Shown piece by piece: positions 1-50,387 of a DNA stretch of 64,000 bases. Each line of letters begins with the position of its first letter. Position 1 is the first letter of the stretch. The DNA is from Blasia pusilla (taxonomy: Eukaryota): contig CM114271.1 of the NCBI GenBank assembly GCA_050084515.1, positions 20,770,001 through 20,834,000 on the forward strand, read 5' to 3'. The notes below the pieces were generated by a model. The model ran no database searches, was not told where the DNA came from, and saw nothing but the letters and a program-made list of their open reading frames with translations. A program made the position numbers and the translations under genes.

Positions 1-1816
1 TCCACACACCCAATATCCCCAAATAAACTACCCAAATCCCAGAATCCCTCACACGTGCAGGGTAAAGGACCAGAATGGGTAACCTGAACACATGTCGATG
101 TCGCTCCTCATAAACTATGAATCTCGACCCCAACTCGTTCGTGGAGACAACTCCTCCAATCAGCAAGTCATACTCCTCCCGTACTGACGTTGCTCAAAAC
201 TCCTCGATAGACGGTGCAGTTCCAGCGGAACGGTGCGCGTTGCAGGCGGCACGGAACGGCATGGCCCTCGATGATGGGATGCGGCACTCGGCGGCATACC
301 CTCCTCAATCAACAATAAACCCACACTCTGCTCCACAATGCCAGAGCGGCTCCGCGATCAAGACGGTGCGGTATGGCCACGAGCGGCACGGCGCGGCAAT
401 CGACGGCGCGTTGCGGCTACGGGCGTCACGGCACGGTACCCAATCTTCGTTGAGCGGCTACCAATCACAACATAGCAGCAGGAAATCAAAACTCAAACAC
501 TATAACATGAGGTCATATGCCATCACAGGTTGATGACGGTGGCGGCCAAAACAAAGTTCGTGATGGCCACGCAAGTCCGAGAATCAACGAACGTTGTGGA
601 AGACCCTCCACTCCGTAACGGTGGCAATAGCAACCAAGGGTGGAAAACGGAAGGTGGACCATTGACGGTGACGGTTGACCGTTGATGGTGACGGACCAAT
701 GGTGACAGTGACGGTTGACCGTCGAAGGTGAAATTTTACCGTTGACGGTTGACAATGACTATGACGGCGACGGACGCCGCCGGTGTGGCGGCTGGTTTAG
801 GGTTTGCACAATTTAACCCTAAAAATTTCCTAGCAATGGCAGTATTGCACAGCGTGCACAGCTTCACGATCTATGCCAGCATTAAAAAATATTTGGAATC
901 GGACATTCCAGTAAAAACTGACAGGGATTGTTGTAAAGCCCAATGTCTCTTTCTTCTACCCAACATTCGGCAGCGCTTCCGCGCTGATTCCTCCCAAAAT
1001 AATTGTAAAACCTATAAAAATGCAAATCAGCAAGCGACATGGTGCTCCCGAAAGCACCGGCATGGGGCAACCCGCCCCCATACTCAATCCCTATCAGAAA
1101 TTGGGCAGCGCTTCCGCGCGCCACTCTTTCACACGAAAAATCGGCAAATGCAACGAAAAATCCAAGCAACCCTTGCTCCGATGAGCACTCCCATGAGCCG
1201 TTGAATGGGGAACACGGTCCCCAACCTACAAAAACAACGAGTGACCAGCGAGCTCCTCCATGAACCTCTCTCACTCTCTCATTCTCGCATTCTCTCTTTA
1301 TAAAGTAAGATTCAATCTCTCTCTACACAATCTCACACCATAGCTCTCAAAGGTGTGCACTCTCTCTCATGTCAAACCAAACCCACTCTCCTAATGAAAG
1401 GCTTGGGTTACACTCACAAGGCAAGGGACCATAGCTCCGCCGCCTCATGCCAAGAGGTTCAACAAAGAGAGAATGAGCTCTCAAGCTCTCTCTCCTTGGG
1501 ATATATACTCCTCCCCTCTCCCAAGCTCTCTCCATGGTAACCTATTCTTCCAAGTCACCTCTTTGGCTCTTGACCTGATGTAGGAGGTCAAGGGCCACTT
1601 ACCAAAAATAGAAAGTCGATCATATACTCAAAATGGTACTTACCTAAAATGGTAAGTTCCTCAATATGGTTCCAAATGAGCCAAAACGAAAGGGAAACCT
1701 ACTCTCTCAGGTTTCCCGGGGCCTCAGCAAGTCATCCTCGACCTCCTAGGCCTGTCCTCCACTACTCTTGAAGAGGCTCTACTAGATCTCATCGATCTAT
1801 CCTAAAGGACGTGATA
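1..1816 (-). mobile_element. 5' end of a second copy of the split-repeat Gypsy family: repeat A (1816-1301) plus leader region running off the window start
   Basis: Reverse complement of 1301-1816 aligns by eye with 19662-20176, 27227-27744 and 30125-30637. About 760-1300 aligns with the leader at 20177-20755. It starts TATCAC (consensus TGTCAC). Confidence 0.85.
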
Positions 1817-1835: not shown

Positions 1836-2180
1836 CTTGTTCAAAGACCTCATCTTGATCTTAAATTAAGGAAACTTGCTCCTCAAGCTGTATCTAGAGT
1901 TATAAGAAATTTTTAAGAAAAAATGGAGTTGTGATCAAAAGCCCAAAAATATTTAAATGATTTTGCAAACCTACGCAATCAAACCTTGTAGAAAAAGAGA
2001 GTCTTTCTACTTTCCATCTTCTTCAAGGACCTCATCTTGACCTGAAATTTTGGAGCCTTGATCCGCAAGATATATTGAGAATTCTTGAAAATTTTCAAGA
2101 AAAATGAAGTTGTCACCAAAAGAGTAAAAATATTTGAATGGTTTTAAGTACCTCGCATGGAAACCTTCTAGCAAATAAGA
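1836..2180. repeat. Two diverged tandem copies of a ~182-bp unit
   Basis: cttgttcaaagacctcatcttga... at ~1836 and cttcttcaaggacctcatcttga... at ~2018, colinear through aaaatattt..atg and aaacctt.tag. Confidence 0.7.
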
Positions 2181-3350
2181 ATTCGGCCCTTGGTAGAGTC
2201 CACGTAGGAGTTAGACGTGCAACAACATTGAAAACAAAGAAAAAATGCGTGCAGTCATAAATGTGTGGGGCTAAAAAACTGGAAACATGTAGGTAAAAAT
2301 TGTAAGTGCAGTAAAGAGGAAAATGCGTGCAACGTGAAAAAGTGGAAGTCGATAGGTAAAAATTGCAAGTGTAGCAAAAATATGGAAGGAATAAGTTGAA
2401 ACGGATGCACGCGATAATGAAGTTTGTGGGCAACGAGGTTGTGTTGGCATGAACTGAGAGTATGGATGTGGTAAAATAGGTAGGCTTTGTAAAGGGCCTT
2501 GCTTCATCACTTGTATGAGCAGGAGAGTATATTCAAAATAGCTAAGCCGTGGAACTCGAGTCTATATAGGTATGATCACTACTGTATATTAGCTCAATGT
2601 ATCCATGGTCATGAGATGGCAAACTATTATGCTCATTGTTGTACAGTATTTCAATGCATCTGTAGCCATGAGTTGGTTAACGTAAACCAAGGTAGTTCAG
2701 AGCGAGAGGTGATTTTAAAGAAGCAAGTATAGAAATTGTGAGCTGCAATATAAAATGGAAAAACTACAAGAAATTAGGTAGTTGAATGTCCTTTAGTAGA
2801 ATATATGAAATAAGTCTTTCTACATGATAGGTGAGGACTGAAACGTGAAAGTAGTTGCGGAATGCAAGGGCGTTGTATCGACAATAAGTTAAATTTGTAT
2901 GATTACCACGTTATGAGATGATTTAGAGAATATCAAAAAGCATCTACATCACATAATTAAATGCATCAACACACTGCAATAAAGTTCATGGGACAGCAAG
3001 CAGTAAACTTGTGGATAAGAAGCATAAAAATCGGAGTAGTTATAATGAGAATAAGGCATCTCGCATGCTTTACCTTGGCTTAAATGTAAGAGGAACCAAT
3101 AAAATTGCTAGTATGCTACAGTAAAGTTGTCATCGTTGCTTGTAGTAAAACTACAAGCAACGACGACAACTTTACTGTAGACAGAAAATGCAACAACAAT
3201 TGGGGGCATGGGAAGAGCAAAAACCAGAGTTGAGATTGGGGAAGTAATTTATAGGCACAGAAAATTGAGTTGGACATGGTAAGCCAATTAAATGTACTGC
3301 CCATAGCTATGTTTGGTGGTAGCAGTACGATACTGCTTGATGGTGCACAA

Positions 3351-6936: not shown

Positions 6937-9450
6937 ATCTTCAATGACGCTGATGGTACGAGACCTCCAGGCTCATGTACTCTTCTATCGTTCAAGGGGC
7001 ACACATTCGAGCGCTTTCATCAGAAGCGAGCGAGACAATACTCGATGTGCAAGATGCGTGCCAATTTGTGGGATATTAGGAAAGTTCATGAGGCAGCAAG
7101 TAAATATCTATTTCTTGGTTGTGTACTTTTAATGGTGACTATAACTAGCCGCAAACTTTTGAATCAGGTTTTCGCTACGCTGTAGGGTTTGAGATAAATA
7201 AAGATCCTGTTTCAACGAAAGACGTGTCTAATGTTCAAACTAAGATTTTTTTCGTTTTTCTTAATATTCTAGTGTTTTCCTGCCTTCGATCCACATAATC
7301 TACTTCAAATTATTCTCCAACCGTCAGAGAAAATAGTTCTTGCGAATGTTGGAAGTCAGATCGAGAAATCATCATTTTTGAATATTGTTTGACGTGCAGA
7401 GTCTTCATTCAAATCCAGTGAAATTACTTTTAAAACATCGAAAAAAATTAACTTGAAATAAACTTAACACCTGAAAGAAAATTCGAAGGAACGAACTAGG
7501 CTTCCAGAAAAACTTTGGAAGATTCGACATTTCGTTCAATTCAATTCGATGTATGTGAAAACTGCGCAGAGGGATAGCTAAAGAATGAAGAACTCTCCAA
7601 TCGTAATCATCCTAGAAGGATGGCAGTTGTAACATAATGAAAAAGATTTCCTTCCGGGAAATGATCTGACGTATTCTCAAGCCAAGCAAGTGAACTGGAA
7701 AATTCGAAGGAACAAGCCCTCTAAAATAAGTAGAGAGCGTAGCAATATGAAAAACACTTTTCATTTCATTCCCATAGATCAGAGAAAGAGCCATTGTAAT
7801 CTTCAGGGCGCCAAGCCCCCGTGAGACGCGCGAAAACCGAGAGACTTCAAATTGTAGGAAGCCTCAGCAAGCTTGTTTCTGGCATCGCTGATTCAACAAT
7901 ATCATGAGTCACCCTAACGTTTTGGTGATTGAAAATACTTGTCTGCGCGAACAACCACGTTCAAAACGGAAGGTTCTTCTACTCGGTCCAGCTTGTCAGC
8001 GGGTGTTACAGAGTCGCTTCAATATGAATTAAGGAACTTCCTGCATTTAAAGTATTCATGATCTCAAAAAAGCTGAGCATTACAGCATCAAGTTGAGATG
8101 ACGTACGTGAAGGTGGCGATTTGGTCTCTTCACATGTACAAGCAGCACATGGAGACGAGATCGTGCCGTTGTAGATCTAAGATACCCATGACAGTTAGCA
8201 AAATGAGTGGTTTCTCTCAAATGGTTTGCATGAGACGGGAGCGATGCGGCCTTTGCGCCAAACAGAACTGAGTTTTGCGTAAAGGTCATAAATGCTGGAA
8301 TGAGGTAGCAGCATTGACACCCAAATGATCTCTCCCATTTGAAAGCTGACAGCGAGACTGAAACGAGGAATCGAGCCGAAGATGACTGAGCTGACTTGAT
8401 CTTGGGGTTGTAGCATTCGGTCCTGTACAGCTTTGATTTCTAGCAATCACTGGTGCTCTGATCTTGTGGCATATGCGGAATTATAGCAGTCGAGGCCATG
8501 AGCCAACCCAGTCAACCCGAGGCCACCACATCCAGTGACTCAAAAATCAGAATCGATCCACAGAAACCTAGAAAGGTAACGGGACCTCACGATATGAGTC
8601 CATTTCCAAAAGGACTTTGCAAGAAGTAGTCCACGAGATGTAGTCCCGGGCTTATGGAAGTCGACGGATGCGAGAACTACGATTTCGGATGGACACAGTC
8701 GAGCTTTGTCTGCTCTGCTTGTAAAATTATGCCTCGTGTTTTCGTTTCGCGTCTTTGTTGGGATTTTTGTAGAATTTTGATGATGGCCGTTTGAATTTCA
8801 CTCGCACGAGGTCAGGGGCACCATTAGCAGGATGAGACTTCGGGTTGGAATTATAGCCGCAGGGACGCAGAGAGAGCTCGACAAAGAAGGCGAATCGAAT
8901 CTCACCATCACCGCATGCTTTCGGATAGAGTCCAGAAGGAGCTGCAGTAGACGACTCGGTTCCAAACTGAGCACACCTGATAAATTCAAACGTCTTCGGG
9001 AGCAAGTTCCCGGCAAGCATCATTCTCATTTTCACCTTCAGCACGGCCTCAGAAACTCGTTTGATTCTCAGAAAATCTCGTTCGTTGATGAGTACCGCCC
9101 CTTTCTCTACGGTTGCTCGTGTGCCAGCGCGTTCAGAAAACGATAAAACGCACTAGAAAATCTTGAGGATCGATTCGTAAGGCGAGACGGAGGAAACCAT
9201 ATGAGATCCTTATGAAGAGGGAGAATATCACTTTCTTCTGGAAGATACACGTACTTTTAATAGGTTTTTTCAAAGTTCGCATCCACAAATGGGTTATGGA
9301 GAAGATGCTTTGTTAGGCATCTTCACGAATTTTTTAAATCCCGATGAATTTTGCAGTGAGTGCGTAGATTTATGCTATGGAGTCCTTCCCATTGATTGGC
9401 TATGGATACGGGCCCCGTTGGAAGCTATTACGTAGCTAGCTCCTTTTGTC

Positions 9451-19025: not shown

Positions 19026-19661
19026 TTAGTTTGCACATATGTAAGTTCCTCGGGGCAAGAGTTGGAAGGATGAGTGCAAGCTAGCCCTCATTCTCTCATG
19101 GAATTTACATTGCGAAATACTATGGGGCAAGGGTGGGGAGTGCGGACATGGACGGAAAGTAGAAGGAAAAGAGGGCAAGGTTTGACGGAAATGGACAAGT
19201 CTGTCCATGGGCATGTGGACCCTGCGCACGCTATGTGAACGGTCCCTACGGGCCTCCAAACGTTTACAGTGTGCAGACTCTAAACGTTCAATCCTTGCCC
19301 ACATCTGTTTCCACGTCTCTCGCCCCACAGGCGACCAGGATACCAAACATGGATGCATAAAAAGTCCATCCCTAGGAAAACATGGAAGGACAAGTTTAGA
19401 CATGTCCACGGACATAGATTACAAGAGGAGGGGCCCATATATACTTATAGTTTATGATGGAAAATAGGGCAAGGTTGAGTGGGACAATAATGGGGGAGGG
19501 AGTGGAGGTGGAGGGAGGAAGAAATGGGAAACTCGAGAACATGTAGATAAGTGGAGGGGGAGGGGGGAGGGTTAGACCTACAAGAAGGGGTGAGTGGGGC
19601 CCATATGGATAATTCCTTCCATAGGACGGACGTAAGTCCACGGACATGGACATGTTTGTCG
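19026..19661 (+). mobile_element. hAT-type MITE-family sequence interrupted by the Gypsy insertion (resumes at 27873-27904)
   Basis: GGACATGGAC/GTCCA-rich sequence similar to 40464-40759. It continues after 27872 as gccgacacgaactttatccatatgcaacattg, matching the family's right end. The left boundary is uncertain. Confidence 0.7.
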
Positions 19662-20176
19662 TGTCACGTCTTTTAGGATATATCGATGAGATCTAGTAGA
19701 GCGCCTTTGTGAGTAGTGGAGGACAGGCGTAAGAGGTCAAGGATGACTTGCAAAGGCCCTGGGAAACCTGAGAGAGCAGGTTTCCCCTTCGTTTCGGCTC
19801 ATTTGGAGTCATATTGAGGAACTTACTATTTAAGGTAAGTACCATTTTGACTATATGGTCAACTTTCTATTTTTGGTAAGTGGCCCTTGATATCCTACAT
19901 CAGGTTAAGAGCCAAGGAGGTAACTTGGGAGCATAGGCTACCATGGAGAGAGTTTGGGAGAGGGAGGGGTATACCTGAAGGAGAGAGAGCTTGAGAGCTC
20001 ATTCTACCTTTGTTGAACCTCTTGGCATGAGGCGGTGGAACTATGGTCTTGCTTGTCTTGTGTGTGTAACCCAAGCCTCTCATTAGGAGAGTGGATTTGG
20101 TATGATATTGAGAGAGACCTGTGAGAGTGCACACATTTGAGAGCTATGGTGTTGCGAGAAATTGAATCTTGATTTA
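19662..20176 (+). repeat. Repeat A1 (contains putative TATA region and TSS near 20001)
   Basis: Direct repeat of 27227-27744, sharing diagnostic indels (atggtcttgcttg, gaatcttgattta) not found in the copies at 1301 and 30125. Confidence 0.9.
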
Positions 20177-20188
20177 CAAAGAGAGAAC
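20176..20188 (+). promoter_or_regulatory. Putative self-priming primer-binding site
   Basis: ACAAAGAGAGAA(C) is complementary to the family consensus ATTCTCTCTTTGT at the predicted TSS. No TGG-type tRNA PBS is present. Confidence 0.6.
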
Positions 20189-20759
20189 GAGATAAGTGAG
20201 AGAGCTTCATGGGGGAGCTTGCTGGTCACTCGCTGGTTTTGCAGGTTGGGGATCTTTTTTCCCCGCTCAGCAGTTCATGGGAGTGCTCACCGGAGGATGA
20301 GCCGAAGCGGCTCATATTTTATGTTTCCTTTGCCGATTTTTCGTGTGGAAGCGTTGCGCAATTTTTGATAGGTATTGAATATGGGGGGAATTTCCCCATG
20401 CTGGTGCTCTCAAAAGCACCATGTATCTTGTTGATTTTTTTTCCATAGGTTTTACATTTTTGTTGGGAGAGCGTGGAAGTGCTGCCAAATTTTGTGTAGG
20501 AGAAAAAGACGTTGCGCTTTACAACAATCCATGTATATTTTTACTGGAATGTCCGATTAAAAATATTTTTTGACGCCGTCGTAGATCGTGAAGATGTGCA
20601 CGTTGTGCAACAGATAATCTGCAATTTGAAGTGCGAGCAAAAAGTTATGGTCAATCTTGCAAAATTGCCATTGCTAGGCAATTTTTAGGGTAAAATTGTT
20701 CAAACCCTAAACTAGCCGCCGCGCGGACGGCGGCCGTCGCCGCCACAGTCATCGTTTAG

Positions 20760-20948
20760 GAGTTGGTGCGACTCACAACGGGCTAGGAAGTCTCGAGAGT
20801 TCAACCCGTTGACAGCATGGAATAGTATGTTCTAGCATTTATCAACACTCAGTTAGCTGCTATTTTGCAAGCTGGAGTGCGCGTGCAACAGTACATGTAT
20901 GTAGAGGTTGATGATGTTGCGAGGTGTGCTTCACTTCACTATGTAGAA
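20760..20948 (+). pseudogene. C5 cytosine methyltransferase remnant, N-terminal (motif I-II region)
   Basis: From 20841: INTQLAAILQAGVRVQQYMYVEVDDVARCASLH, the pattern that follows the FxGxG motif and includes the acidic motif II. Motif I itself is frameshifted. Confidence 0.6.
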
Positions 20949-21353
20949 AATATGATTCTCAAATGCAAATAATCTATATTAAAAGAAAGAAATAATATAT
21001 TTTACAATAAACATACGTAAAATATTTTTCAATCTTCTTGTAGAATATTAATGGTATCTACATAATAATGGATATACACATATGCTTCCAATATTAGATA
21101 GATATTCTTTCAATACAAAACCCATGTCCATCGCAGAACTCACAATGTAGCACCTTCACTAACATCATGCAAGAAAATTACGTCGTAGACATTATCTATT
21201 GATCCAAGTCCATTGCACATAAAACTGCTCGTAAAGAGTACAAACAAGCCATAAATAGAACTACATATGAGATATCTTGACAATGATGGTATCGCCATCA
21301 TTCTCATGGGAAATCCCATCATGCGCTCTTGTTTCTCAATATTGAGTTCTACA

Positions 21354-21603
21354 TAGGGTTGCACACGCACAAAGTCCGTGATCGTTGACACGTTCATATC
21401 CGCGGATTTATGTTTGTCATACGGATGGACGTGTTTGTGTTGGCTCAGGTATCCGGAAGCCCTCCCACAGACCGCCCTACGGGCCTACCATGGGCCCCGC
21501 AAAGGATGCGGGCTCTGTCAGCCTAGGTGTACGCGCCGGGCTCAGGTGTGGGCTAGGCATGTCTGAGGATATGTCCGCACTTGTCTGTTTCCGTGCAACC
21601 TTG
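21354..21603. mobile_element. hAT-type MITE
   Basis: TIRs TAGGGTTGCA / TGCAACCTTG; perfect 8-bp TSD GTTCTACA (21346-21353, 21604-21611). Confidence 0.9.
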
Positions 21604-21677
21604 GTTCTACAAAATGTTTTCTTATGCCTGATCATCCCAAATCAAACTAGAACATCCCTCCTTGTAAGTATTGGGGA

Positions 21678-23285
21678 AAAGGTTGCATATGGGCAAACTT
21701 TGTATCCGCGTATATGTCAATGTCTATGGACTTTCGTCAGTCCTATAGAAGGACTTGTGTAATGTACAAGAAGTATAAGAATTGATCTTTTTAGAGTTAT
21801 TTAATGAGTTTGATCCCCAAGAGGATCACGATTATGTGAAAAGAGAGTTTAAGTTGGCATTTATCTTGCAATAGTTGTAGTTAAGTGTGTACAATTCGGA
21901 TTCAATCACTGATCTGTCTATCCTTCTCTCCATTAGTTCCAAGATTTCTTTCCTTGATTCTCTCCAGTGGAATTGAATTCACGCTTAGGTAGATCTTCAC
22001 TCAACACCAAAGAACCTTAGAGAGACCTCAACAAGAAGTTGGCTTCTCCTACTTTCGGAACTCAATCCGTCTAGGCAGGCTACTCTCTATCAAACAGACT
22101 TCTTACAACTTGATGTTGAATATTCTAATGATGAAAGTGTTCTCCTGATCCACTCTTCACTCTACAGACCCAATAAGAATTCTCAGACATATGCATCGCA
22201 CATCAGAATGAAGAAATGAGTTCTTTACTACCGCATCAAGGATGAGAAAGCTTCAAAGTGTATACAAGCTTGAGAGGGTACCACTCCCTTGCTCGGACCA
22301 TTCCTACAATATAAGGACTTCGTGAAAGAATGATAAATAAATTCATGCTTCTTAAATATCTTTCAAGGTTGTAGTAGGTCCAAAGATCTGAAGCGTCTCT
22401 TATGAATCTAGTACCTATTGAGAGTTTAAAACTACCTTGATCTACGGTTCTCTTATCTTTTCCTATGATCGCTATGAATCCGCTGGGCTTAAGTGTCCTA
22501 ACTTCCTATCAGGTCCAAAAAGCCACGCCTCTTCCTAGCCTAACTATTCTAACGGTGTGCCGCTTGAAATCACGACAAGTCTTAGTTTCGCTGCGAAGTC
22601 TAGACCTCTTCTTCTTCCTTTGAGGACGAAGCTCTTCCTCTTGGTCTGAGGACGAAGCGCTGCATTCTTCACGTTTGTTCCAAGTGCTTCGTTCTTCGTG
22701 CTTCACTAAAGAGCAAAGTACTTCTTCCTCTTCTTCTTCATCGTGCTTCTTTCAAGAGCGAAGCACTTCATAAATAGGTTCTTAATAAGGCTTCGTTGTC
22801 TTTTCCAAGCTTTTCTCTGAGTCTTTACACTTAATTACTGCATTTCCCTCTCCTCTAAGGCAAGTCCTTGATTTTCCACCTCTCTGCCTTGTCCTAGGAG
22901 CCTCGTGAGCCACTTCAATACTACTCATTCTTCCAATACACAAACATAATATCTTAAAAAATGATGTATATACAAGCTTTACTTCATAGAGTCTTCATTC
23001 CTTGAATCAAAAGGTGCAAATCTCCAAAATTACAAAATTGTGGGTATCACAACTTGTCCACGTGGCCCCATCCCTCACTTCTTTCTCATTCCCCCCATTT
23101 GCCTTTGTGATCCGCACTTTTTGTTTCTTCTTCCTCTCCCCTCCACTCCATCTCCCCTTATTGCCCCACCCTTTGCCTTCCACCATGAACTATAAGTGTG
23201 AGCCCTATCTTTTGCAATCCATGTTTGTGGGCATGTCCAAACTTGTCCATCCAAGGGACAGATTTGTCCATTTTTTGCAACCATG
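21678..23285 (-). mobile_element. hAT-type MITE containing a nested solo LTR
   Basis: TIRs AAAGGTTGCA / TGCAACCATG; perfect 8-bp TSD ATTGGGGA (21670-21677, 23286-23293). Confidence 0.9.
21758..23051. mobile_element. Solo LTR (~1.3 kb) of an unrelated LTR family
   Basis: Ends TGTAAT...ATCACA; perfect 5-bp TSD ACTTG (21753-21757, 23052-23056); host MITE resumes in register. Confidence 0.85.
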
Positions 23286-23469
23286 ATTGGGGATAGGACA
23301 ATCGACTAGTGTGAAGGAGTATTTCTCTTGGCATGCTATCTATAGTATTGACCACACTCAATGGAGGTTGATTATTGGGCTTCATTTCTTTTGATCGATA
23401 TTTGAGATCCAAAATTGGATCTACCAGCAACTTGGATTGAGGGAAGCTCCATCAGTATCGTCCGTTTTT

Positions 23470-23600
23470 GTGACTTGTTATTTGCGTCTACCATTCAGGG
23501 TTACCAGAGTTCCCTACCGAGGGATATTTCATTGTTGGGGGCGCAGGACTTGGAGCGGGTAGGGACCATCGACTTGGTCACTGCTCGTTGGCCATGTCAG
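23470..23600 (+). pseudogene. C5 methyltransferase remnant with motif III and catalytic motif IV
   Basis: LPRDISLLGAQDLERVGTIDLVTARWPCQ matches the DI...D-hhh-G-x-PCQ signature; Pro-Cys codons at 23592-23597. Confidence 0.8.
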
Positions 23601-23859
23601 AATCAAATCTCCATGTGGCAAGACCCAAGGAGATTGATACACCAAGGGTGATTGGGAGAGACACCCTTGGACTTCTTGGGATGTTTTGTAGATAAGCCAG
23701 GAGATGGTAGCCACAGCATCAAGCGTGGTTGCGGGTACTGCACATGGAGATTTGATTTTGCAGTTGGTTGCAGAAGAGCAGTCGAGTTTCGTTGTTCGAG
23801 ACGGGGTTGCACCATAGCAACCACCTACACCCGCGTTGGAGAGTCCTACCATAGTCACG

Positions 23860-26780
23860 ATGGAGACATGGGAGCTTGATATGGGTCCTAAGATGACAAG
23901 AGGAGAGCGACGCTGGATACATCGTTTCCTTAGGAGTCATAGGAGTTGTTTTGCATTTAACATGTAGGATTTGGGTAACCTGATGGGTCCAGGGATCCGC
24001 ATTGAGTTTTCAGTGACACCTCGATCTTCCGACGACCCTACAGGTATAGTGACATGGAGAGGGCTCTGATTCAGAGTAGGAGCCTGGACTTGGTTGGAGC
24101 AAAACTAGTGGAGATGTCACATGGAGAGTATGCATTTGCCACTGTCATGCCCGCCAAGAAGGATGTGCATGGCAACAGGACAGATAGGTGGATGTGTGGA
24201 GATTACCGATCTATCAATCAGTGGACAAAGTCCGATAGATATGCCATATCCACTCTTGAGGAGATCTTTGATGCTATTGGGCCTGCAAAGGTCTTTAGTT
24301 CATTAGATCTTCGAGCCGGATACCATCAGCTGCCTATCAGATTGGAGGACAGGCAAAAGACGGCATTTTGGGGCATCAATCCTCACGAGAAGGATTGCTT
24401 GTACCACTGGCGGTTCTTACCATTTGGGTTAAAGAACGTCTTGGATGAGTTTCAAAGGGTCATGGATAGGATCTTGGCAGGTCTAGATGCTGCTAGGTGT
24501 TATGTTGATGACATCCTTGTCTTTAGCGTCACCGTTGATGAGAAGGAGCGACATCTAGAGGAGGTCTTTCGAAGATTATAGTTACATGGGCTGAAGCTAC
24601 ATCCAAGCAAGTGCAATTTTCTCTACGACCAGATTGAGTACTTGGGTCATACGATATACCCAGCTCGTGTTGATGTGCAGCAGATGAAGGTAGAGGTTAT
24701 TTTACCCATTCTACGCCCTACAGATATGAGTCGAGTTCGTGCATTCATGGGATTGGCAAACATCTATCGACAATAAGTCAAGGGTTTTAGCTCGATTGTG
24801 AAGCGGCTGACCTTGCTGACCAAGGTGGATCAGGAGGGGCAATGGGAGGATGAGCAGGAGAGAACATTTCACATGCTCAAGGATAGATTGACGTCCGCGC
24901 CCATATTGAGGATACGATGAGGGGGCGTCCTTTCTAGTTGCATACGGATTGGAGCATGTTCGGGCTTGGAGCCGTGCTCACCCAGCATGACGATGATGGT
25001 AGAGAGTTTTTGGTGGCTTACTCTAGTTGCTCAAACAACGTTGCAGAGGCGAAGTATAGCTCGTATGAGGGTGAGTGCTTGGCTACAGTGTGGGCTATCA
25101 TACATTTCAGATGTTATCAATCCGGAAATCCCTTTACCATCATTACTGATCATCAGCCGCTCAAGTGGTTGATGGAGTCTGATAAGCTTACATGGAAGCT
25201 TGCGAGGTGGGCTCTTTTGTTGCAGGAGAATGATTTCCATGTGGTGCAAAGACCCGGGATGCTCAACCAAGATGCAGATGGTTTGAGCCATAACCCATGC
25301 ATGAGTGAGCGAGATGCGAATGGAGCTTGTTGGCATGGTGAGAGTGATGAGGAGTTGGTGCCAAGATGGCATGCGTCAGCCTATTTGAGCTTGTTGGCTA
25401 TGGAGAGCCAGATTGCTGAGACTTCGATGTCAAGCTCTAATGTAGAGTCCTTAGATCCAAAGGCCGATGAGGAGACGACAAGTGACCGAGACATTCACGA
25501 TGATGGATTGGTCTTGAAGAACCTCCATACTAGAAGTATCGCGAGCACAGTGGGTGCTAGAGAGTGGGATCGGATCTTACAACAAGCCAAACAGTTTCGG
25601 TGAGAAGGCATACATGTGTTGCGAGTGTGGGAGGATGGTAGAGTGCATGTAGTGCCTCATCCTTTGCAGGGAGCACGTTTGGTGTGTCATGCCCACGAGG
25701 AGTTGGGTCATTTTGGAGTGAAGCGGACGTACATCTTGCTCCAGATTCAGTATTGGTGGCGAGGCATGCAGACTGACGTTTAGCGGTTTGTTGCCTGATG
25801 CATGGTGTGTGATCGAGTCCGAGCATCGTTTAATGCTCCGACTCCAAAGCTGCATCCACTTCCGATCATGGGTTTAGGTTATAGATGGATTTTGGATTTT
25901 TCAACACCTTTGCCTTTGACGGAGCGCCATTATCGCTATGAGTTGGTGATGGTCGAGCAATTCTCGAAGTAGATAGAGTTTGTTGCATTTCCTGACAAAG
26001 CGAGTGAGAGAGTAGCGTATGCCTTCCTAGATTGGGTGCTAAGTCATTATGGCACACTAGCTAAGGTGTTGACAGACCAGGGTATAGAGTTCCGTGGGGA
26101 GTTTCAAGCCTTGTGTAATCAGGCATTGATCGACCATCGCACTACTTCACGAGATCATCCTGAGGCGGATGGACTAGCGGAGCGGGTTGTGTAGATGGTG
26201 AAGAGAGGACTACGCAAGTATGGGTTGTAGAGAGGTCACCTAGGAGATTGGGACCTCCAATTGCCGTGGTTGGCGATGGGATACAGATTTAGCATATAGG
26301 CATCCTTAGCGTCTTTCTCATCGTACTTGCTTTTGTATGGTCGAAAACCAAATTTACTTGTGGCCATTCGTCAAGATGTTGGTGAGGAGTTGAATCTTGA
26401 TGACCTTCATGTATGGATACAAGCATGTTCTCAGAGGGCTGAATTATTTCAGAGATTGATGCCCATGGCGTTTGAGAACTTGGCGATTGCAAGCATGGGA
26501 ATACATTGAGGTATGCAACTATACGGGGAGGTGGTTATCTACCTACTATCTAGAGGTTTCATCAAGGAGACTATGTCTACTTGCAGCAGACGGCAGCCAC
26601 ATTGTTGGATGTGATTGCATGGTGCACCATCTTGAGAGTGCGTGAGGTTTTGCCATCACGTGTTCTCTTATTGGAGGGACGCAATGGTATGGTTTGGAAG
26701 GACCCTATGCGTAACTGTGCGCCATGTCACCTTCCGAACATTGACAGTATAGTTGATGCGAGCTTAGCAATAGTTCATGC
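23860..26780 (+). pseudogene. Gypsy pol: RT, RNase H, integrase (disrupted)
   Basis: RT: MCGDYRSIN, LDLRAGYHQL, KTAFWG, LPFGLKN, YVDD. RNase H: HTDWS..GLGAVLTQ, ECLA, TDHQPL. INT: H..H..C..C near 25690-25810, LTDQGIEF, DGLAER. Confidence 0.95.
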
Positions 26781-26790
26781 AAGCTTGCAA

Positions 26791-26931
26791 TGTATGTTGT
26801 GTGGTTCTGCCCGCGGTGCAGCCACTATCCTAGTCTGTGATGGATGTTCGAGAGGATAGCATATGGCATGTTTGATGCCACCTCTCACTAGGGTTTCTCA
26901 GGGATGATGGATGCATCTTAGATGTACATAG
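26791..26931 (+). pseudogene. PHD finger at the C-terminus of the integrase
   Basis: CMLC-x11-CDGC-SRG*HMAC-LMPPL...WMHLRC, i.e. C4HC3 spacing with premature stops. Confidence 0.85.
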
Positions 26932-27098
26932 CGTAGGTAGTTCTACATTCCAATTTGTGTCTATGACATGGATGACAAGAAGGCGACTAACGATGGGGCC
27001 ACATGAGCACCTGCCCTTCTTGCTCTAAGCGTTTGAGAGATGTATGTCATGGTAGGTAGGGAAAGATGGCTATCTACAGTTAGAGGGACCTAACCACC

Positions 27099-27111
27099 AA
27101 GTAGGAGGGCG
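27099..27111 (+). promoter_or_regulatory. Putative polypurine tract
   Basis: AAGTAGGAGGGCG directly abutting repeat B1. Confidence 0.6.
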
Positions 27112-27872
27112 ATTGGAGATATTTTGGTACTTTTTGTGTAGTTGTTTGGATGTCATGAGTAATCATGGGATCGTGTGTGTTTGTGTGTTTGTGTTCAGTG
27201 ATAGCGATGTGTATGCGCACGACAACTGTCATGTCTTTTAGGATAGATCGATGAAATCTAGAAGAGCGCCTTTGCCAGTAGTGGAGGACAGACTCAAGAC
27301 GTTGAGGATGACCTACTAAGGCCCTGGAAAAACTTGAGAGAGCAGGTTTTCCCCTTCGTTTCGGCTCATTTGGAGTCATATTGAGGAACTCACTATTTTA
27401 GGTAAGTACCAGTTTGAGTATATGGTCGACTTTCTATTTTTGGTAAATTGCCCTTGATCCCCTATATCAGGTCAAGAGCCAAGGAGGTGACTTGGGAGCA
27501 TAGGTTATCATGGAGAGAGCTTGGGAGAGGGGAGAGGTATACCTCAAGGAGAAAGAGCTTGAGAGCTCATTCTGCCTTTGTTGAACCTCTTGGCATGAGG
27601 CGGCGGAGCTATGGTCTTGCTTGCCTTGTGTGTGTAATCCAAGCCTCTCATTAGGAGAGTTGATTTGGTTTGACATTGAGAGAGAAATGTGAGAGAGCAC
27701 ACATTTGAGAGTTATGGTGTTGGGAGAGATTGAATCTTGATTTAATTGGAGATATTTTGGTACTTCTTGTCTTGTTGTTTGGATGCCTTGAGTTAGCATG
27801 GGATCGTGCGTATTTTTGTATGTGTTCAGTGACAGCGATGTATGTTGTGTACCGATGTGTATGCATAGGACA
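27112..27872 (+). repeat. 3' repeat block B1 (27112-27224) - AC - A2 (27227-27744) - B2 (27745-27872)
   Basis: B1 and B2 both begin ATTGGAGATATTTTGGTAC and end ...GACA; junction CACGACA-AC-TGTCATG. Confidence 0.9.
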
Positions 27873-28546
27873 GCCGACACGAACTTTATCCATATGCAAC
27901 ATTGCTACAAAGAAACCCAAGAGGGAGACCCATTGGGTGTGTTTGTCCCATGGACGGTAAAATTTGTATTGGTTGCAACCTTGATATGTTCCCATGCAAC
28001 TTGGTTAAATCCCTCTTTATTTTAAATTTAAATGCTTTCCATCGTTATGCCTCCATCTCAATTAAAAAAAAAAATTTGGACATACCCTAAAATAGTCCCT
28101 TCCTCCCTCTTCATCTCTATTACTTAGGGAGAATAGCTTCTTGAATTGCAAACACCTCTTAAATTAATTGACGCATGGCAATAAGGTAGCAAGAAAATGT
28201 TTTGGTAAAACGGAAAAAATATGAGTTTTAATCATTATTGGTCTCATGTATAGCACTAGATACACACTAGTTACTAATAACTAATAATGCATAAAATTTT
28301 ATTTCTTATTTTAAATGCGCTCTTCATAATTAATGGAATCGTGGAAAAATAAACTAGTTTTAGTGAGATATTGCTTCTTGAAAGGAAGGGATTTCTTTTG
28401 GAGGAAATTGCACCTTAGGTATATTTATTTAGTTCATCCTTCTAAAAAAAAGTAAGAAGATACAAATTTATTTCAATTTAAAAATATTGAACCCATGGAG
28501 AGAAAGAAATTTTCTCTTCTTTGCAGGAATAAACATGTTGTCTTCA

Positions 28547-29141: not shown

Positions 29142-31310
29142 TTAACCACATAGGTCAACGTGTATCGTCTCTAGAGGAGCCTTTGCTCTATTGCTGGACT
29201 CTTGTGGAGTTGGTCGTTGGTGTTGCTTGCCCATCATACAAGCTTCACATGCATCCAACACTCCAAAAATTGTTGGTAAATCAGAAACCATGCCAGATTT
29301 CTGCATCTGACTCAGTAAGGGAAAGCTTAGGTGACCAAATCTTTCGTGCCACAACTTACTACTACCAAGATCTGTATCTACACTTGTCGCGAAATCATAC
29401 AACTCGTACATATTTCCACGCCGTATATTTCATCCACTACTTTCCCATTGGCATCCTCAATGACTGCTCCAAATTTCTTAAAACAAACTTGTAAGTCGCG
29501 ATCACATAATACTGCTACTGAAAGTAAATTGCGCTTCAACTCTAGTACACACAGTACGTCAATTAACTTCTTTTCATCTCCTTTTTTTGAGACTAAAGAA
29601 ATTGTGCCTTTCCCTTCTACATAGCACTTTGCATTATTCCCAACTGTAACAACAATGGGCTCTTGCAGAGGCTATAAGGAGCTATACCAATCCTTATGAT
29701 TGGTCATATGCCTATAAGCTCCACTATCGAGCACCCATGCATCTTCACTCTTTGACTTAGTGGAATATTCTACCTGTGTGCAAAACTCTTCAATTGCTAC
29801 GCAAACATCCATCTCCTAGCAAGCATTCTAGTTCTACAGAATTTCTATACCCTCTTTTAGGTCTTAAAAAACCGTTCTTCTCATCCTAACTCCTCTTTCT
29901 ACAATCTTTGATAAGATGACGTAGCTTACCATAATCTAAGAATTTGAAAGCTTTCATTGGAAAAAAAATTTCTTGATATTTGAATTTTAATCATGATTTC
30001 TACCTCCCTGTACGTTGGTAGTAAATGCTGCATCACTTCCCTCTCTTGCTTTGAAGTGTATTTCCTCTTCTACCAACATTGCACTAAATTGTTCAAAAGT
30101 AAGCGACGTGGGTCTTACTTGAGTTTTCACGTCTTTTAGGATAGATCGGTGAGATCTAATAGAGCGCCTTCATGAGTAGTGGAGGACACGCTCAGTAGGT
30201 CGCGGATGACTTGCTGAGGCCCCAGGAAACCTGAGAGAGTAGGTTTCCCCTTCGTTTCGGCTCATTTGGAGCCATATTGAGGAACTTACTATTTTAGGTA
30301 AGTACCATTTTAGTATATGATCGAATCTCTATTTTTGGTAAGTGGCCCTTGACCTCCTACATCAGGTCAAGAGCCAAGGAGGTGACTTGGGAGAATAGAT
30401 TACCATGGAGAGAGTTTGGGAGAGGGGAGGGGTATACCTGAAAGAGAGAGAGCTTGAGAGCTCATTCTCTCTTTGTTGAACCTCTTGGCATGAGGCGGCG
30501 GAGCTATGGTACCTCGCCTTGTGAGTGTAACCCAAGCCTCTCATTAGGAGAGTGGGTTTGGTTTGACATGAGAGAGAGTGCACACCTTTGAGAGCTATGT
30601 TGTGAGATGGTGGAGAGAGAGATTGGATCTTACATTAATTGGAGATATTTTGGTATTTCTTGTCTCGTTGTTTGGATGCCATGAGTTAACATGGGATCAT
30701 GCGTGTTTGTGGGTGTGTTCGGTGACAGCGATGTATGTTGTGTAGCGATGTGTATGCGCACGACAGAATATTCAATGCAGTGACCAAACTGTCATACCTC
30801 GGAGGCAAAATCCTTATGCACCGACGTGCCAAATCTTCGCTAGACTTTGAAATTCCTACGGACGCCATCTGATCTTGAAGAGTCTTGATCCTCATCAAAA
30901 ATTTCTCCACGCTTTCTCGTTCTGAAAATTTCTCAAACATAATCTAATTCTCTAGATTCTGAATCTGAGTCTCATTCCTGGTTGCATACTGATTCTTTAG
31001 AATGTTCCACACCTTAACAACAATGGTCGTAGTCATGACAGAATAGTTAGTTACATTTGTGAAAATTGCATATAGAGCATTAGTGTTTCCATGCCAGCAA
31101 TACTTCACGATTGATATCACCAGAGAAAGATGAACATGCAGAACTCAAAGTAGCTTTTGGATTCAAATCGACCCTTGTGGTCGTCTCCCATATCTTCAAT
31201 TATTCGAGGATAGTTCTCATTTTGAACTTCCACAATGTATAGTTAGACCCATCTAACTTTCCTTCATCCAGCGGAGGAGGGCGAACATAATCTGACGAAG
31301 AAGTAGCCAT
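29142..31310 (-). mobile_element. Truncated Ty1/Copia gag-protease-integrase start
   Basis: ATG 31310 MATSS..KLDGSNYTLWKFKM (gag), LPPRYDSLVTAL, WVLDSGA..HMT (protease, ~29720), LWHERFGH..CEAC..GKQH..IHVDLCG (GAG-pre-integrase / INT start). Confidence 0.92.
30125..30765 (+). mobile_element. Solo A-B unit of the split-repeat Gypsy family inserted in the Copia gag
   Basis: A 30125-30637 directly fused to B 30638-30765; ends CACGACA; 4-bp TSD GAGT/GAAT; removal restores Copia frame ALNTQVRP. Confidence 0.9.
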
Positions 31311-40463: not shown

Positions 40464-40759
40464 CATGGTTGCACAAAATGGACAAGTCCTTATTCAGGAC
40501 GGACATGGACGGACGTTTGGACATGTCCACAAACATGGGTTCCAAGAGGTAGGACCCACACTTTGAGTCCATGATGGAAGGCAAGGCAAGGATGAGAGGA
40601 GCAATGAGGGAGGAGGGAGGAAGAAATGGGGGAGTATAGAACACGAAGGCAAGTAAGGGGAATGAGAAAGAAGGGAATGGTGGGGCCTATATGGACAAGT
40701 CCTTCCATAGGACGGACATAAGTCCACGGACACGGACTTTGTCCACATATGCAACCTTG
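40464..40759 (+). mobile_element. hAT-type MITE (intact)
   Basis: TIRs CATGGTTGCA / TGCAACCTTG; perfect 8-bp TSD GTGATGCA (40456-40463, 40760-40767). Confidence 0.92.
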
Positions 40760-44038: not shown

Positions 44039-47000
44039 TGTCGCGACCCTCATAACCAAACAACACCAAATACGCGCCAAGCGAAACATCAGAACTCAAA
44101 GGAACTCACGCCGCGAGGTTTGCGCTTTGGAGAGGCGTTTGGAAGAGTCTCTTGGAAAAGTCTAAGAGACGTAAACGTGGAACAGAGTTGTGCGTTTCAT
44201 GCGTTAGTGGTCGCGACCAGGAAACCTAGACCAAACGCGAGCCGAGACTTGAGATGAGTTGAGTCTTGGAGGTTGGTTGCCAAAGAGGTGAGAACCAGTT
44301 TGGAACACGGCTAGCGTTTGGGAGAATCTGACTGTGTTTAGGACCATAACGTTGAGCTCCGAGATGCGTTCGGGACAAGTAAGGACGCGTTGGAAAGCTG
44401 ATCTTGAGACGCTTCCAACGCACCAAAGATCTCAGCAAACGCATAAGTACAGGCTGAGATATTGGCCGAAAACGATTCAGAGAGCAATCGGGTTGAGGGC
44501 CAAGTGGTGTCTTCCCCTAAATGTAGGGGGCCCCGGAGATCCCCAGAAGTAATAGTAGGGGAGTACCTTCTCTGAGATGTCTCGGGAAACGAAACCCCAC
44601 TTTGGGCGCCAAACGGCGTTTGAGGGCAGATGAAACGGGAGTTTGGCGCTGAAACCCAAACCCAAACCTGATCCAAGGGAGTGGACTTTGTATGCCACAC
44701 TTGGATTCCAACCGAGATTCACGTGAGAGTCTTGGTGAGGAACTCATTGGATGTTCATCGGACGATTAGAACCGCTTAGGCGCGAAACGCCGTTTCAGTT
44801 CCTGAACCGACGAAAAGTCTGTCCCAAGTCTTTCGAGACTTGCCCGTGTTGGAAACCGCGAAACTAGGAAGGTTGAGCTTGAAGAGAGAGTCCGAGACGA
44901 GAACTCGGAAAGTAATCCCGCTGATTGATCCAAGACCCGACTAACCGGTGCGTGTTTGGATGCAGATTAGCGTTGAGAGCGTGACCTCAACGCACGCTTC
45001 GCAACAAACAAGATTAACGTTCAAGGAGAGTAGGCGCACGACACGTGGTATCGAGCAATTCCTTGATGAGCGTGAACTTAGGTCGTTGAAGATCTGGGCG
45101 TTTGGGGAGAACTCAAGGTAGCCGGAAGACCGCGACGCCGAGGAGGAACGCAAGAGGCGAGGAGGAGATCTGAGAAAAGGCGACGACTTCGCAAATGGCG
45201 ACCAAGGGCGAAGAACCGAGAAACCGCGAGTCAAAGCAAAGAAGCCAAGAGCGAATCAATGACGGACCGAGAGCCGGAGGTGGAATTTGCGACTCGAAGT
45301 GCCGAGTCCCAGACATGAGGATGTTCCAACCGAAAATCTTTCGCGGGACCTTCGGGTCCAAACTTAAACGATCCGGCCTTTTATACCCAAATGATGGGAT
45401 TGATGAAGGTGATGGCGGACCAGATGGTGAAACAGAGCAAGGTGATCTCGAATTCAAGTCAAATGGAGCCTCTAGCTCGGCAAGAAGCTTTGTAAGACTA
45501 ATTTGCCAACGCCATTCACACAGAATGGGGCGTTCTCGGAAAGTGAGCGAAGTTTCTAACGGAACTCGAACTCTATTTCGAGCGCAAAGGCAGATGAACA
45601 AGACAAGGTGATCAGAAGCGGTCACGTTTACGAAGGATCACGCTCTCCATTGGTGGACGGCTCACCGGAAAGAACATCTAGGTCGTGGGAAAACGTTGAG
45701 TTGGGAAGATTTCAAGGAGTTGATTGGGAACCGATTCACTCCGGAATATCAGGAGTACCGCGATGGCATGGAGGTGGTGAGGTTGCGCCAGAGTGGATCA
45801 CTTGGTGCTTATGTGCGAGAGTTTAGTGCGCTCATGAGTGCACTTTCCACGGACGAACATACTAAAAAGGTGATCTTCCTAAGTGGGCTCAAACCGAGTG
45901 CCGAGAAGGCTCTCTTTCGTATGCCTCACATCCCAGAGACGTGCGCGGACCTCTTGAGACTAGCCGAGCGGATTGGGGACGATGAGGTCCAACACCCGAA
46001 ACCCTTTGAGACCAAAAGTTTTTCTAAGTTCTGAGAAGAATAAAGGGACATCCAAGAGGGTTTGGAATGGGGGTGAGCGCGACCACGGAGGGTCTCGCCC
46101 AAATGGCTAAACGAGTGGAACTCAACGCTGAAGCTTTAAGGGCCGCCGTTCTGACGAAGTCAACGAATGCCAAAGTGATTTGTTATAATTGTGGCGAACC
46201 CGGGCATATGGCTAAGGAATGTGTGAGGCCCAAGGTTAGTAAACCGAGTATGATTGCGTTTGCCGCTAAGCATTTATCGGAGGGAGATCTAGATACATCT
46301 CTACAAGTCACCAAGAGGACGCCCAATTTGGTTTACCTAGGATCCAAGATCGCTAATCGCGATGTGATGTTGCTCGTTGATACAGGTGCTTCGCACTCAT
46401 TCTTGAGTCCGAGAATCGTAAAAACGTTGGGATTGCCAACCACCAAAGCGGATGAACCCATTAGGGTAGGATTCGCGGGAGGAAAATCCCACCAGACATC
46501 AGATCTGGTTTTAGGGCTAGTTGTGAGATGCGGAGTATTTGAGTTGAAGGAGAATTTTCTGATTTTGCGAGATGGACGGTATCGACGGAGTCTTGGGAAC
46601 ACGTTCTTGGATGCGTATGAGGTGGAACGAGGCGGAGACCTTTGAGGTTAAGCGTCTTGGTTAACGGCAAACGGATGGACGTCAGATTGGTTCGTGAGGT
46701 GCCTAGAAAGACGGAGTTGGTGAACGCCATCACGAGGACGAGTTTGGCGAGTTAGAGGAAGGATTCCTTTGCTTGATGAGACAGTAGAGGATGATGCAAG
46801 CGCAAGATGCAGAGATCAGAACTCAGCTTCAAGGGAGATCCTGAAACACTCAAGAGAGTTGTGAAAGAATTTGAAGATGTGTTGACTAAGGAGCTTCCGA
46901 CTGAGTTGCCACCACATAGGGCGGTTGATCATAAGATTGAGGTGATACGGGGATCTCAACCACCTTCAAAGGCACCATATAGGTTGAATCAAGAGGAACT

Positions 47001-50000: not shown

Positions 50001-50387
50001 GATGAGTCTGTCTTGGGGTTTGTGGTGATCTCATTCATGTTTCATGACTGAACTTAGTGACGCGCCTAGGTGGAATACAGGTGACCCAAAAGTAGTACTG
50101 AGTTGGCTAGGTAGACAAAGGTTGTTTACAAATAGTGAGTGAAGTGTTAGGTTGCGGACTTAGTGAGCTTATTTTGATAGTTAGATTAGTTTGGCGTAAC
50201 TAGTCTAGGCTCATCGTAAAGCGAAGCTAATAAGTCTAAGTGCTGCAAGCGACAAACCTAAGACTTAAGCCAAAAAGAGGAATTGCGGGTTAGCTACCAG
50301 AACGCGATTCTGTGTTAAGGGGTCGGCTTCCCAGAACTTAACATCAATAAGGTTTGCGTTGATGAGGACATCAACCTTCTAAGGAGG
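44039..50387 (+). mobile_element. Ty3/Gypsy chromovirus, 3' LTR deleted
   Basis: 5' LTR 44039-45043 (TGTCG...CGACA); PBS TGGTATC(A)GAGC 45046-45056 (initiator Met tRNA type); zinc knuckle CYNCGEPGHMAKEC, protease LVDTGASHSF, RT YIDD, RNase H TDAS, INT, chromodomain ~49500-49690; breaks within the PPT. Confidence 0.95.

Follow-up and report, generated by a model that had tools for sequence, protein, structure and literature searches.

A 64,000-nucleotide stretch of the genome of Blasia pusilla (GenBank assembly GCA_050084515.1, contig CM114271.1, forward-strand positions 20,770,001 to 20,834,000; hereafter the window) carries, at positions 19662–27872 of the stretch, an old, defective member of a very abundant family of Ty3/Gypsy-type retrotransposons that encode a DDE integrase. 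Two identical full long terminal repeats (LTRs) around the internal region, as in other elements of this type, are not what is found: the 5′ end consists of one repeat, A, on its own, and the 3′ end consists of a second repeat, B, followed by a two-nucleotide spacer (xx), a further A and a further B, and the same is true of 16 related loci. The whole lineage is integrated in the order A – leader and open reading frames (ORFs) – polypurine tract (PPT) – B – xx – A – B.

The coordinates of all these repeats (Table 1) had been proposed in an initial annotation made from the letters of the window, together with a left end of A only and a right end of B1-AC-A2-B2; direct-repeat search, self-BLAST and alignment recovered every one of them. 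Identity is 90% between A1 and A2 over 518 columns and 87% between B1 and B2 over 99 nt, and B1 (113 nt) differs in length from B2 (128 nt) because of a short internal duplication in B2, present also in a third copy that begins at 30125. The match between A1 and A2 ceases at …GATTTA, beyond which the sequence reads either CAAAG (leader) or ATTGG (B); B1 opens with ATTGG and begins, as the annotation had it, exactly where A1 and A2 diverge. Alignment likewise placed the annotated A|leader boundary in a fourth copy running leftwards from 1816, and the annotated A|B boundary in the copy at 30125. The four-way alignment contains three insertions or deletions that are common to A1 and A2 and absent from copies 3 and 4, and the converse is also true. 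It follows that both A repeats of the element have one origin, and that both types of junction are present in both subfamilies.

Between the repeats lies a broken pol with the order reverse transcriptase (RT) – RNaseH – integrase on a single strand, the order of Ty3/Gypsy elements, as judged by Pfam and by collinear tblastn. The residues of the D..D-35-E motif are legible in the ORF translations of the window copy, where the rve match falls under the Pfam cut-off (E 1.4e-4); in a relative, L057, rve is recognised at E 1.4e-12 and a PHD finger at E 2.7e-8. The one-strand domain order and the DDE motif support the annotation's assignment to Gypsy-type elements with a DDE integrase. To judge from its sequence the window copy itself is dead: the frame breaks near 24012, 24914 and 26491, and stops are many.

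The repeat layout, taken by itself, would allow a quite different identity, namely an element of the DIRS/PAT type whose tyrosine recombinase was missed and whose Gypsy-like pol was acquired secondarily. We find this scarcely credible. A Pfam scan of 59 out of 59 ORFs of at least 50 amino acids, on both strands of the internal region, gave no match to Phage_integrase at E ≤ 0.01, in keeping with the annotation, which had expected no tyrosine recombinase, and none was present in 10 ORFs of the relatives L057, L064 and L020. The families recovered from the 59 ORFs were RVT_1, two RNaseH families, Integrase_H2C2, rve and one weak chance match, and nothing else. The D,D-35-E pattern is moreover intact and accompanied by an integrase zinc-binding domain, and 4-bp target duplications and TG…CA ends, described below, are present.

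Table 1. Features of the element and of its sister copies in the window
Feature	Position	Strand	Basis or remark
5′ end of another copy (copy 4): A 1816→1301, leader 1300→752, without B	752..1816	-	intact self-primer complement
Left target-site copy GTCG	19658..19661		3/4 positions match GCCG at 27873-27876
Repeat A1, 515 nt, begins TGTCACG	19662..20176	+	direct-repeat search, self-BLAST, four-way alignment
TATA-like box inside A1	19970..19975	+	30 nt upstream of predicted RNA 5′ end
A segment complementary to the first bases after A (predicted RNA 5′ end/self-primer)	20000..20013	+	
Predicted self-primer binding site directly after A1	20177..20190	+	no tRNA-type TGG
Leader and beginning of first ORF (ATG 20209; mosaic breakpoint 20754)	20177..20954	+	
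Nested/foreign sequence, ~2.5 kb	20955..23462		absent from relatives and most family copies
Broken pol overall	23824..26928	+	ORF translations, Pfam, collinear tblastn to relatives
RT	24006-24776	+	Pfam RVT_1
RNaseH	24938-25603	+	Pfam RT_RNaseH
Integrase zinc finger (Integrase_H2C2) and DDE core (rve)	25604-26491	+	Pfam matches up to 26194
PHD-finger remnant	~26794-26928	+	aligns with PHD-bearing relatives
PPT AAGTAGGAGGGCG adjoining B1	27099..27111	+	
Repeat B1, 113 nt, terminates CACGACA	27112..27224	+	direct-repeat search, self-BLAST
2-nt spacer AC between B-end CA and A-start TG	27225..27226	+	near-palindrome centre
Repeat A2, 518 nt	27227..27744	+	direct-repeat search, self-BLAST, four-way alignment
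Repeat B2, 128 nt, terminates GGACA	27745..27872	+	A2|B2 = A-end|B-start, zero bases gained or lost
Right target-site copy GCCG	27873..27876		
Solo A-B unit, other subfamily of the same family (copy 3)	30125..30765	+	A runs directly into B; flanks GAGT / GAAT

The layout in raw reads and related loci

We compared 1,967 million letters of raw whole-genome shotgun reads of the same species (run X10, about 1% of the run), along with three contig sets, with positions 19500–28050 at 80% likeness. Depth over pol reached ~2,100–3,200 per bin, with both directions summed and from that ~1% of the run; A and B were each covered at roughly 1.2–2 times the depth of pol. At this depth the family ranks as one of the most abundant repeats of the Blasia pusilla genome. 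Within the best 15 of 808 read joints, three connect a B-end through two letters to an A-start (27849 to 27202 with 208 reads, 27864 to 19662 with 165, and 27874 to 19662 with 71), three are A|B joints of the other subfamily (222, 82 and 37 reads), and two carry A variants on into the end of A1 and the leader (178 and 62 reads). Chance falls far short of producing such a pattern. No joint from B-end to leader, or from PPT to A-start, was among these best 15 of 808, which leaves room for rare forms. The 1,685 loose ends behind 27864 have as their consensus B-end, two nucleotides and A-start, and the loose-end consensus before 19662 looks like B-end plus two nucleotides. The two letters between B and A vary among reads (GT in 31, AC in 25, and others).

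The reads also document the decay of this particular copy. Depth is very low at 20930–21787, and 64 reads support a joint from 20924 to 23496, on either side of the foreign sequence. A separate breakpoint lies at 20754, where 1,268 reads matching rightwards from it carry a different left sequence (agreement 0.83) and where the similarity to copy 4 also stops; the leader module of the window copy is therefore common to only part of the family. C>T (427 places) and G>A (402) predominate among the differences between the reads and the copy across 19500–28050, each transversion type accounting for 55–111, an excess that fits decay through deamination of methylated cytosines.

Beyond Blasia, the RNaseH piece of the window element matches proteins of liverworts (Calypogeia, Riccia, Marchantia) and of Closterium and Klebsormidium; many of the RNaseH-matching proteins carry PHD (PF00628) and some DNA_methylase (PF00145). 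A scan of metagenome contigs yielded 80 loci, which were typed by self-comparison and segment mapping. Sixteen independent loci have the long form, that is P-B-xx-A-B (P denoting the PPT), or B-xx-A as far as the contig end or a rearrangement. They comprise L006, L011, L014, L020 (=L018), L039, L042, L057 (=L053/54/69), L050 and L023 in the clade of L057, and L055, L064 (=L063), L066, L072, L073, L077 (=L078) and L079 in other clades; in four of them (L057/L053, L020, L064 and L073) the entire A…B-xx-A-B can be seen. A short form, A-leader-…-P-B followed by flank, occurs at ten independent loci, with both ends visible in four (L008, L029, L030, L067) and the 3′ end only in six (L009, L022, L025, L028, L048, L070). 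Nine loci stand outside these counts: L015, L021 and L027 are rearranged or truncated, L019 and L034 reach the contig end (the junction of L034 being visible), and L031, L056, L071 and L075 have no recognisable repeats. Among rearranged relatives, A2 is followed by an inverted partial A in L023 (3361–3878), and an inverted B-P piece is joined to a leader in L027 (3884–4547).

These data bear directly on the simplest alternative, in which the family is an ordinary Gypsy element with identical A+B LTRs and the window copy and copy 4 are rearranged, tandem, partly deleted or artefacts of assembly. The window copy is after all heavily decayed and contains foreign sequence, and A-B solos resemble normal solo LTRs. 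This explanation is nonetheless already largely refuted, and we allow it only a very slight chance of being correct. Not one of 15 5′ ends (11 from the L057 clade, L064, L073 and the window's two) has B between A and the leader; the layout is common to the 16 independent long-form loci, spread over three clades; the junctions occur in hundreds of independent raw reads; and the PPT stands before B1, not before A2. The initial annotation had argued for a replicated family structure as opposed to a rearrangement, and had named A+B at both ends, or B after the leader at intact 5′ ends, as the contrary outcomes. Neither was found, and its argument is sustained by the alignment, the reads and the 16 related loci.

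A quick maximum-likelihood search on the RNaseH region, with four outgroup rows, spread the long form over three separate clades, of which two have support 100. The window copy clusters with proteins of liverworts, and the Klebsormidium protein falls within the same ingroup (support 93 versus the four outgroup rows). Short forms occur scattered among long ones.

The ends of the insertions are uniform. Throughout the lineage A starts with TGTCAYG and B ends with CRYGACA, the termini of the window element being TGTCACG…GGACA, so that a DDE integrase, a short target duplication and TG…CA termini – the combination characteristic of Gypsy elements – occur together here. Ten elements have both ends visible: five have perfect 4-bp duplications (CATA at the L057 locus, TCTC in L020, TACA in L008, TGTG in L029 and TTCA in L067), four match at three of four positions (L030, L064, the window element and the window solo), and one, L073, has no matching duplication. 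The TG…CA ends and 4-bp duplications reported in the initial annotation therefore stand for the lineage, and the ends stand for the window copy too, but the duplication of the window copy is imperfect (GTCG against GCCG), as is that of the solo at 30125 (GAGT against GAAT), each matching at 3/4 positions. The possibility that B alone is the LTR and A a 5′ untranslated region was rejected, since A opens at a constant base although the flanks are unrelated, both in the copies of the window and in 13 related loci.

A second regularity is found inside the element. The spacer between B1 and A2 is exactly 2 nt long in 17 related loci and in the window, reading GC in nine loci, AC in four and in the window, GT in three and AT in one. 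The internal B-xx-A junction is near-palindromic, and with a GC spacer it becomes the perfect palindrome GACAGCTGTC. Within the L057 clade GC is found in six of nine loci, the variants are single transitions, and there is no relation to the target duplication of each element. This pattern shows the spacer to be inherited; the dominance of GC in the clade led us to reject a spacer that is made anew at each insertion or copied from the flank. At one insertion site recovered from two samples the spacer reads TC in L053 and GC in the others (L054, L057, L069), an allelic difference at the centre of the palindrome.

The short forms, for their part, invite a history in which the integrase inserts a simple A…B – from linear complementary DNA (cDNA), or from a one-LTR circle cut at its palindromes – and the long form arises later, through host homologous recombination of circular cDNA with a resident A-B or A…B. 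Three short forms have perfect 4-bp duplications (L008 TACA, L029 TGTG, L067 TTCA) and, in the quick tree, short forms are mixed among the long ones; a crossover in A, which is longer than B, would favour A…B-A-B over A-B-A…B, and integrase-independent, homology-based insertion has been reported for Tf1 (PMC11042837). We nevertheless regard such later recombination as improbable. An exact A-end|B-start junction must still arise somewhere; recombination with an A…B copy would produce tandem dimers, none of which was seen among the related loci; the long forms stand at distinct sites with duplications of their own (CATA, TCTC); and short forms cannot supply replicating RNA, which would put the abundance of the family out of reach.

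Replication signals and a candidate route of insertion

How such an arrangement is propagated is the central issue, and the signals that reverse transcription would use are informative here. A run of G (AGGGGGGCG, TGGGGGGGG; in the window AGGAGGGCG) lies 0–5 nt before B1 in 15 of the 16 long-form loci and in the window element; in the remaining locus, L077, the B1 boundary falls inside a TA repeat and the run is unreadable. Its form and position are those of a PPT, which places the start of the plus strand at B-start. A Gypsy element would have a primer-binding site of transfer RNA (tRNA) type after the 5′ LTR and a PPT before the 3′ LTR, an arrangement that differs from the one found, the PPT preceding B1 and not A2. 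No tRNA-type (TGG) site was found after A or B in the window and the relatives inspected, and the window holds no tRNA gene usable as a reference for a primer-binding site.

What follows A instead is a sequence that pairs with the inside of A itself. The bases after A pair at 15/15 positions in L073, 15/16 in L064 and in L050, 13/14 in L067 and 13/14 in copy 4, 12 of the latter forming a perfect stretch of a length reached in 0 of 2000 shuffles. Nine of 15 elements have a perfect complement of 10–15 nt that starts within a few nucleotides of the A end, and for none of the nine did more than 14 of 2000 shuffles do as well; the nine fit the working definition of self-priming in a survey of plant LTR retrotransposons (Neumann et al. 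2019; PMC6317226), namely at least 10 nt, starting 0–5 nt after the 5′ repeat and complementary to the inside of that repeat. Three clades have three different pairing sequences, which amounts to covariation. In the window the paired segment at 20000–20013 is decayed in A1 and A2 and intact in copies 3 and 4. A TATA box starts 29–33 nt upstream of the paired segment in seven of nine elements (26–33 nt at the widest), with a spacing like that of the window A1 in copy 4, L064, L073, L016, L024 and L030. Around A ~150–180 in L016, L024, L030 and L050, a hairpin-like inverted repeat, CTCAAAGAAC-ATA-GTTCTTTGAG, contains the predicted start of the RNA; in the L057 clade the first arm of the hairpin is identical to the primer-binding word after A, and a second complementary word occurs ~80 nt further on.

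The last of the signals is the junction between A2 and B2, which is an exact A-end|B-start in the window, L006, L014, L039 and the L057 locus. We also considered whether B holds a copy of R, and rejected it, the similarity of A to B being no higher than that of shuffles in 4/4 families.

With a PPT in front of B1 and a self-primer site behind A1, the LTR of reverse transcription should be B-xx-A, and the integrated layout therefore a circular permutation of the ordinary product of reverse transcription. Transcription would start inside A1 and end in A2; the 5′ end of the RNA would prime the minus strand at the site after A1, in the manner of Tf1, and plus-strand synthesis would begin at B1. 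The outcome would be an ordinary linear cDNA in whose LTR the U3 region is made up of B, the spacer and the first part of A, and the R-U5 region of the remainder of A. The integrated form would then be a 2-LTR circle of this cDNA opened at the palindrome of the leader-side LTR: A2|B2 would represent the U5-end|U3-start junction of the circle, and the outer ends of the insertion the two halves of the internal palindrome CA-xx-TG. A simple permutation of a circle with an A+B LTR was rejected, since it does not produce the observed order.

The joining of the cDNA ends might precede integration, giving a 2-LTR circle, or follow it through end-joining by the host. Either way the integrase would cut both strands of a single internal palindrome, 3′ of CA, and insert the two ends with a 4-bp stagger; on the second, equivalent course the palindrome would be cut in the linear cDNA, the two synapsed ends would be inserted and the host would join the old cDNA termini. 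Nicks 2 nt apart would leave recessed CA-3′OH ends with 2-nt 5′ overhangs, and this is the normal processed state of retroviral ends. On this reading the long form alone would give an RNA with a complete A and a complete B, and would therefore be the only form able to replicate. The A-B solos and the A…B short forms would be by-products, the solos arising through A1×A2 recombination or as an excised A|B piece, and the short forms through cutting of both palindromes, from a one-LTR circle or by B1×B2 deletion.

The main rival account dispenses with both the circle and the joining of ends. Template bridging has been proposed as the mode of replication of PAT, Ngaro and DIRS elements. Applied here, an RNA running from inside A1 into B2 would be copied by an RT that rebuilds the outer parts of A1 and B2 on the internal B1-xx-A2, and the resulting linear cDNA, with A-start and B-end as its termini, would be inserted in the ordinary way. 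The account has attractions: it would explain the absence of A-B-xx-A…B forms, the internal junction holds both terminal sequences 2 nt apart, like an unprocessed end, and the repeat layout is that of tyrosine-recombinase elements (A-coding-B-A-B in a figure legend of PMC5890265). It sits poorly, however, with a conserved G-run PPT that precedes B1 and not A2, and with a conserved self-primer that follows A1 and not B1; both placements predict cDNA ends at B-start and A-end, contrary to template bridging. Furthermore, no feature of the RNA would halt synthesis exactly at A-start, and the A2|B2 junction would need passage through RNA. We consider template bridging unlikely.

Several observations weigh against the permuted insertion of an end-joined cDNA. 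Foremost, a circle opened at random should give A-B-xx-A…B as often as it gives long forms, and none was seen: in every one of the four loci whose 3′ end is P-B|flank and whose 5′ end can be seen, the element is a plain A…B. Our only idea on this asymmetry is that the leader-side palindrome might be the first to become stably double-stranded. The complement of the self-primer is absent or shorter than 9 nt in 6 of 15 elements (the window A1, with 9/11, and L057, L020, L008, L007 and L029), which we attribute to decay, and A of the L057 clade contains the complementary word twice, leaving the predicted start site there ambiguous. L018/L020, with 19 extra nt, L011 and L042 depart from an exact A|B junction. 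The ten short forms come from short-read metagenome contigs and could be collapsed assemblies or B1×B2 deletions; the RNaseH tree is a quick search with many unsupported forks; and the junction evidence from reads draws on the best 15 of 808 joints. Lastly, we infer from sequence the transcription start, the poly(A) site, the use of the primer and the joined intermediate alike.

With these points taken into account, permuted insertion by way of an end-joined cDNA, with integrase cleavage of the internal palindrome, is on the sequence evidence probably the best explanation of the layout. The more general proposition is that a whole lineage of DDE-integrase retrotransposons, found in streptophyte algae and in plants of bryophyte type, has as an obligatory step of its replication a joined-end intermediate of the 2-LTR-circle type, having B-xx-A as its LTR and being cut at the palindrome inside that LTR, such that every insertion is a permuted A…B-xx-A-B. 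This we advance more tentatively, as a proposition whose chances fall a little short of even.

Relation to known elements

The nearest known system is KnitGypsy-Dnmt3 of Klebsormidium nitens, for which de Mendoza et al. (2018; PMC5890265, legend to Fig. 4c) noted DIRS-type repeats combined with Gypsy domains. Both the Gypsy domain composition and the A-coding-B-A-B repeats are found in the window element, and the K. nitens protein P0040, with the order RT-RNaseH-DNA methyltransferase (DNMT)-integrase, is homologous to it (41% identity over the RNaseH query, 36–51% per segment). The suggestion in the initial annotation that the architecture is possibly undescribed does not, accordingly, survive comparison with the KnitGypsy-Dnmt3 layout in PMC5890265; its identification of a Gypsy element and of a family-wide layout does, and it offered no mechanism. 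Literature searches on split direct repeats with an integrase or DDE, on KnitGypsy, and on Gypsy/DIRS in bryophytes turned up no other description of a split-repeat layout in Gypsy elements.

The two elements also differ. A Dnmt3-type domain was not found in the window copy and is weak in L057, where a DNA methyltransferase remnant lies at 7239–8642 (E 0.0019). A DNA cytosine methyltransferase domain stands upstream of RT in relatives from Marchantia, Klebsormidium and a metagenome (proteins P0019, P0025, P0033 and P0040, with the remnant in L057); none of the 59 ORFs of the window copy matches DNA_methylase, and the DNMT-bearing N-terminal parts of P0033 and P0040 match it in short stretches only, the sequence there having been lost or replaced. 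The window element, further, is from a land plant and its copy number is very high; it is a new member of a kind that was first noticed in Klebsormidium. New here is the layout across the lineage together with the 4-bp duplications, the inherited 2-nt palindromic junction, the PPT before B1 and the self-primer after A1; the available text of PMC5890265 gives no target duplications, PPT, primer site or mechanism for KnitGypsy-Dnmt3.

The PAT-like, Ngaro and DIRS elements share with the present lineage the split direct repeats A1…B1-A2-B2 and an RNA that carries an internal copy of the joined termini. They have a tyrosine recombinase, no target duplication and an RT of another lineage, whereas the present lineage has a DDE integrase, 4-bp duplications, TG…CA ends and the Gypsy order RT-RNaseH-integrase. 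A different likeness is that to Tf1/sushi and the plant Tcn1 elements, which have no tRNA-type primer site and in which the bases after U5 are complementary to the upstream repeat (PMC6317226). Those elements have two identical LTRs and a chromodomain, in contrast to the permuted repeats and C-terminal PHD finger found here.

Retroviruses provide a precedent for the proposed cleavage. Integrase cleavage of palindromic LTR-LTR junctions, and circles that feed integration, have been described for foamy virus and HIV-1 (PMC1180852, PMC1905944, PMC4372172). As in the retroviral 2-LTR circle, the palindrome is built from two integrase recognition ends. The retroviral palindrome, however, results from the joining of cDNA ends and belongs to a side path; that of the present lineage is inherited inside the LTR, the route through it would be obligatory, and joined cDNA ends would form another junction, A|B.

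These findings have a practical side. LTR-finding software seeks two identical terminal repeats and would miss, or wrongly split, a widespread and abundant lineage of this kind; the plant LTR-retrotransposon survey PMC6317226, whose methods begin from paired LTRs, has 0 occurrences of "PHD" in its available text. They have a mechanistic side also. The signals described above make joined ends and palindrome cleavage testable, as a concrete instance of a DDE integrase that would act inside an end-joined cDNA, at its internal palindrome, and they bear on the old question in retrovirology of circular integration precursors. Were the proposed mechanism true, the lineage would embody a natural and obligatory version of a long-discarded idea, the two-LTR circle as integration precursor. 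It would also account for the convergence of a DDE element on the repeat layout of tyrosine-recombinase elements, both opening a joined-end intermediate away from the cDNA ends.

Two other sets of repeats occur in the window. One family is present at 19582–19651, just to the left of A1, at 23052–23253, inverted inside the foreign 2.5 kb, and at 40506–40737; 52 reads join 19528 to 23113 on opposite strands. The other set is an inverted pair at 44192–50382 (+) and 58218–63800 (-), 72–79% identical, with RT, RNaseH and integrase of Gypsy type; it belongs to a different Gypsy lineage, with ~25–35% identity to the proteins used here.

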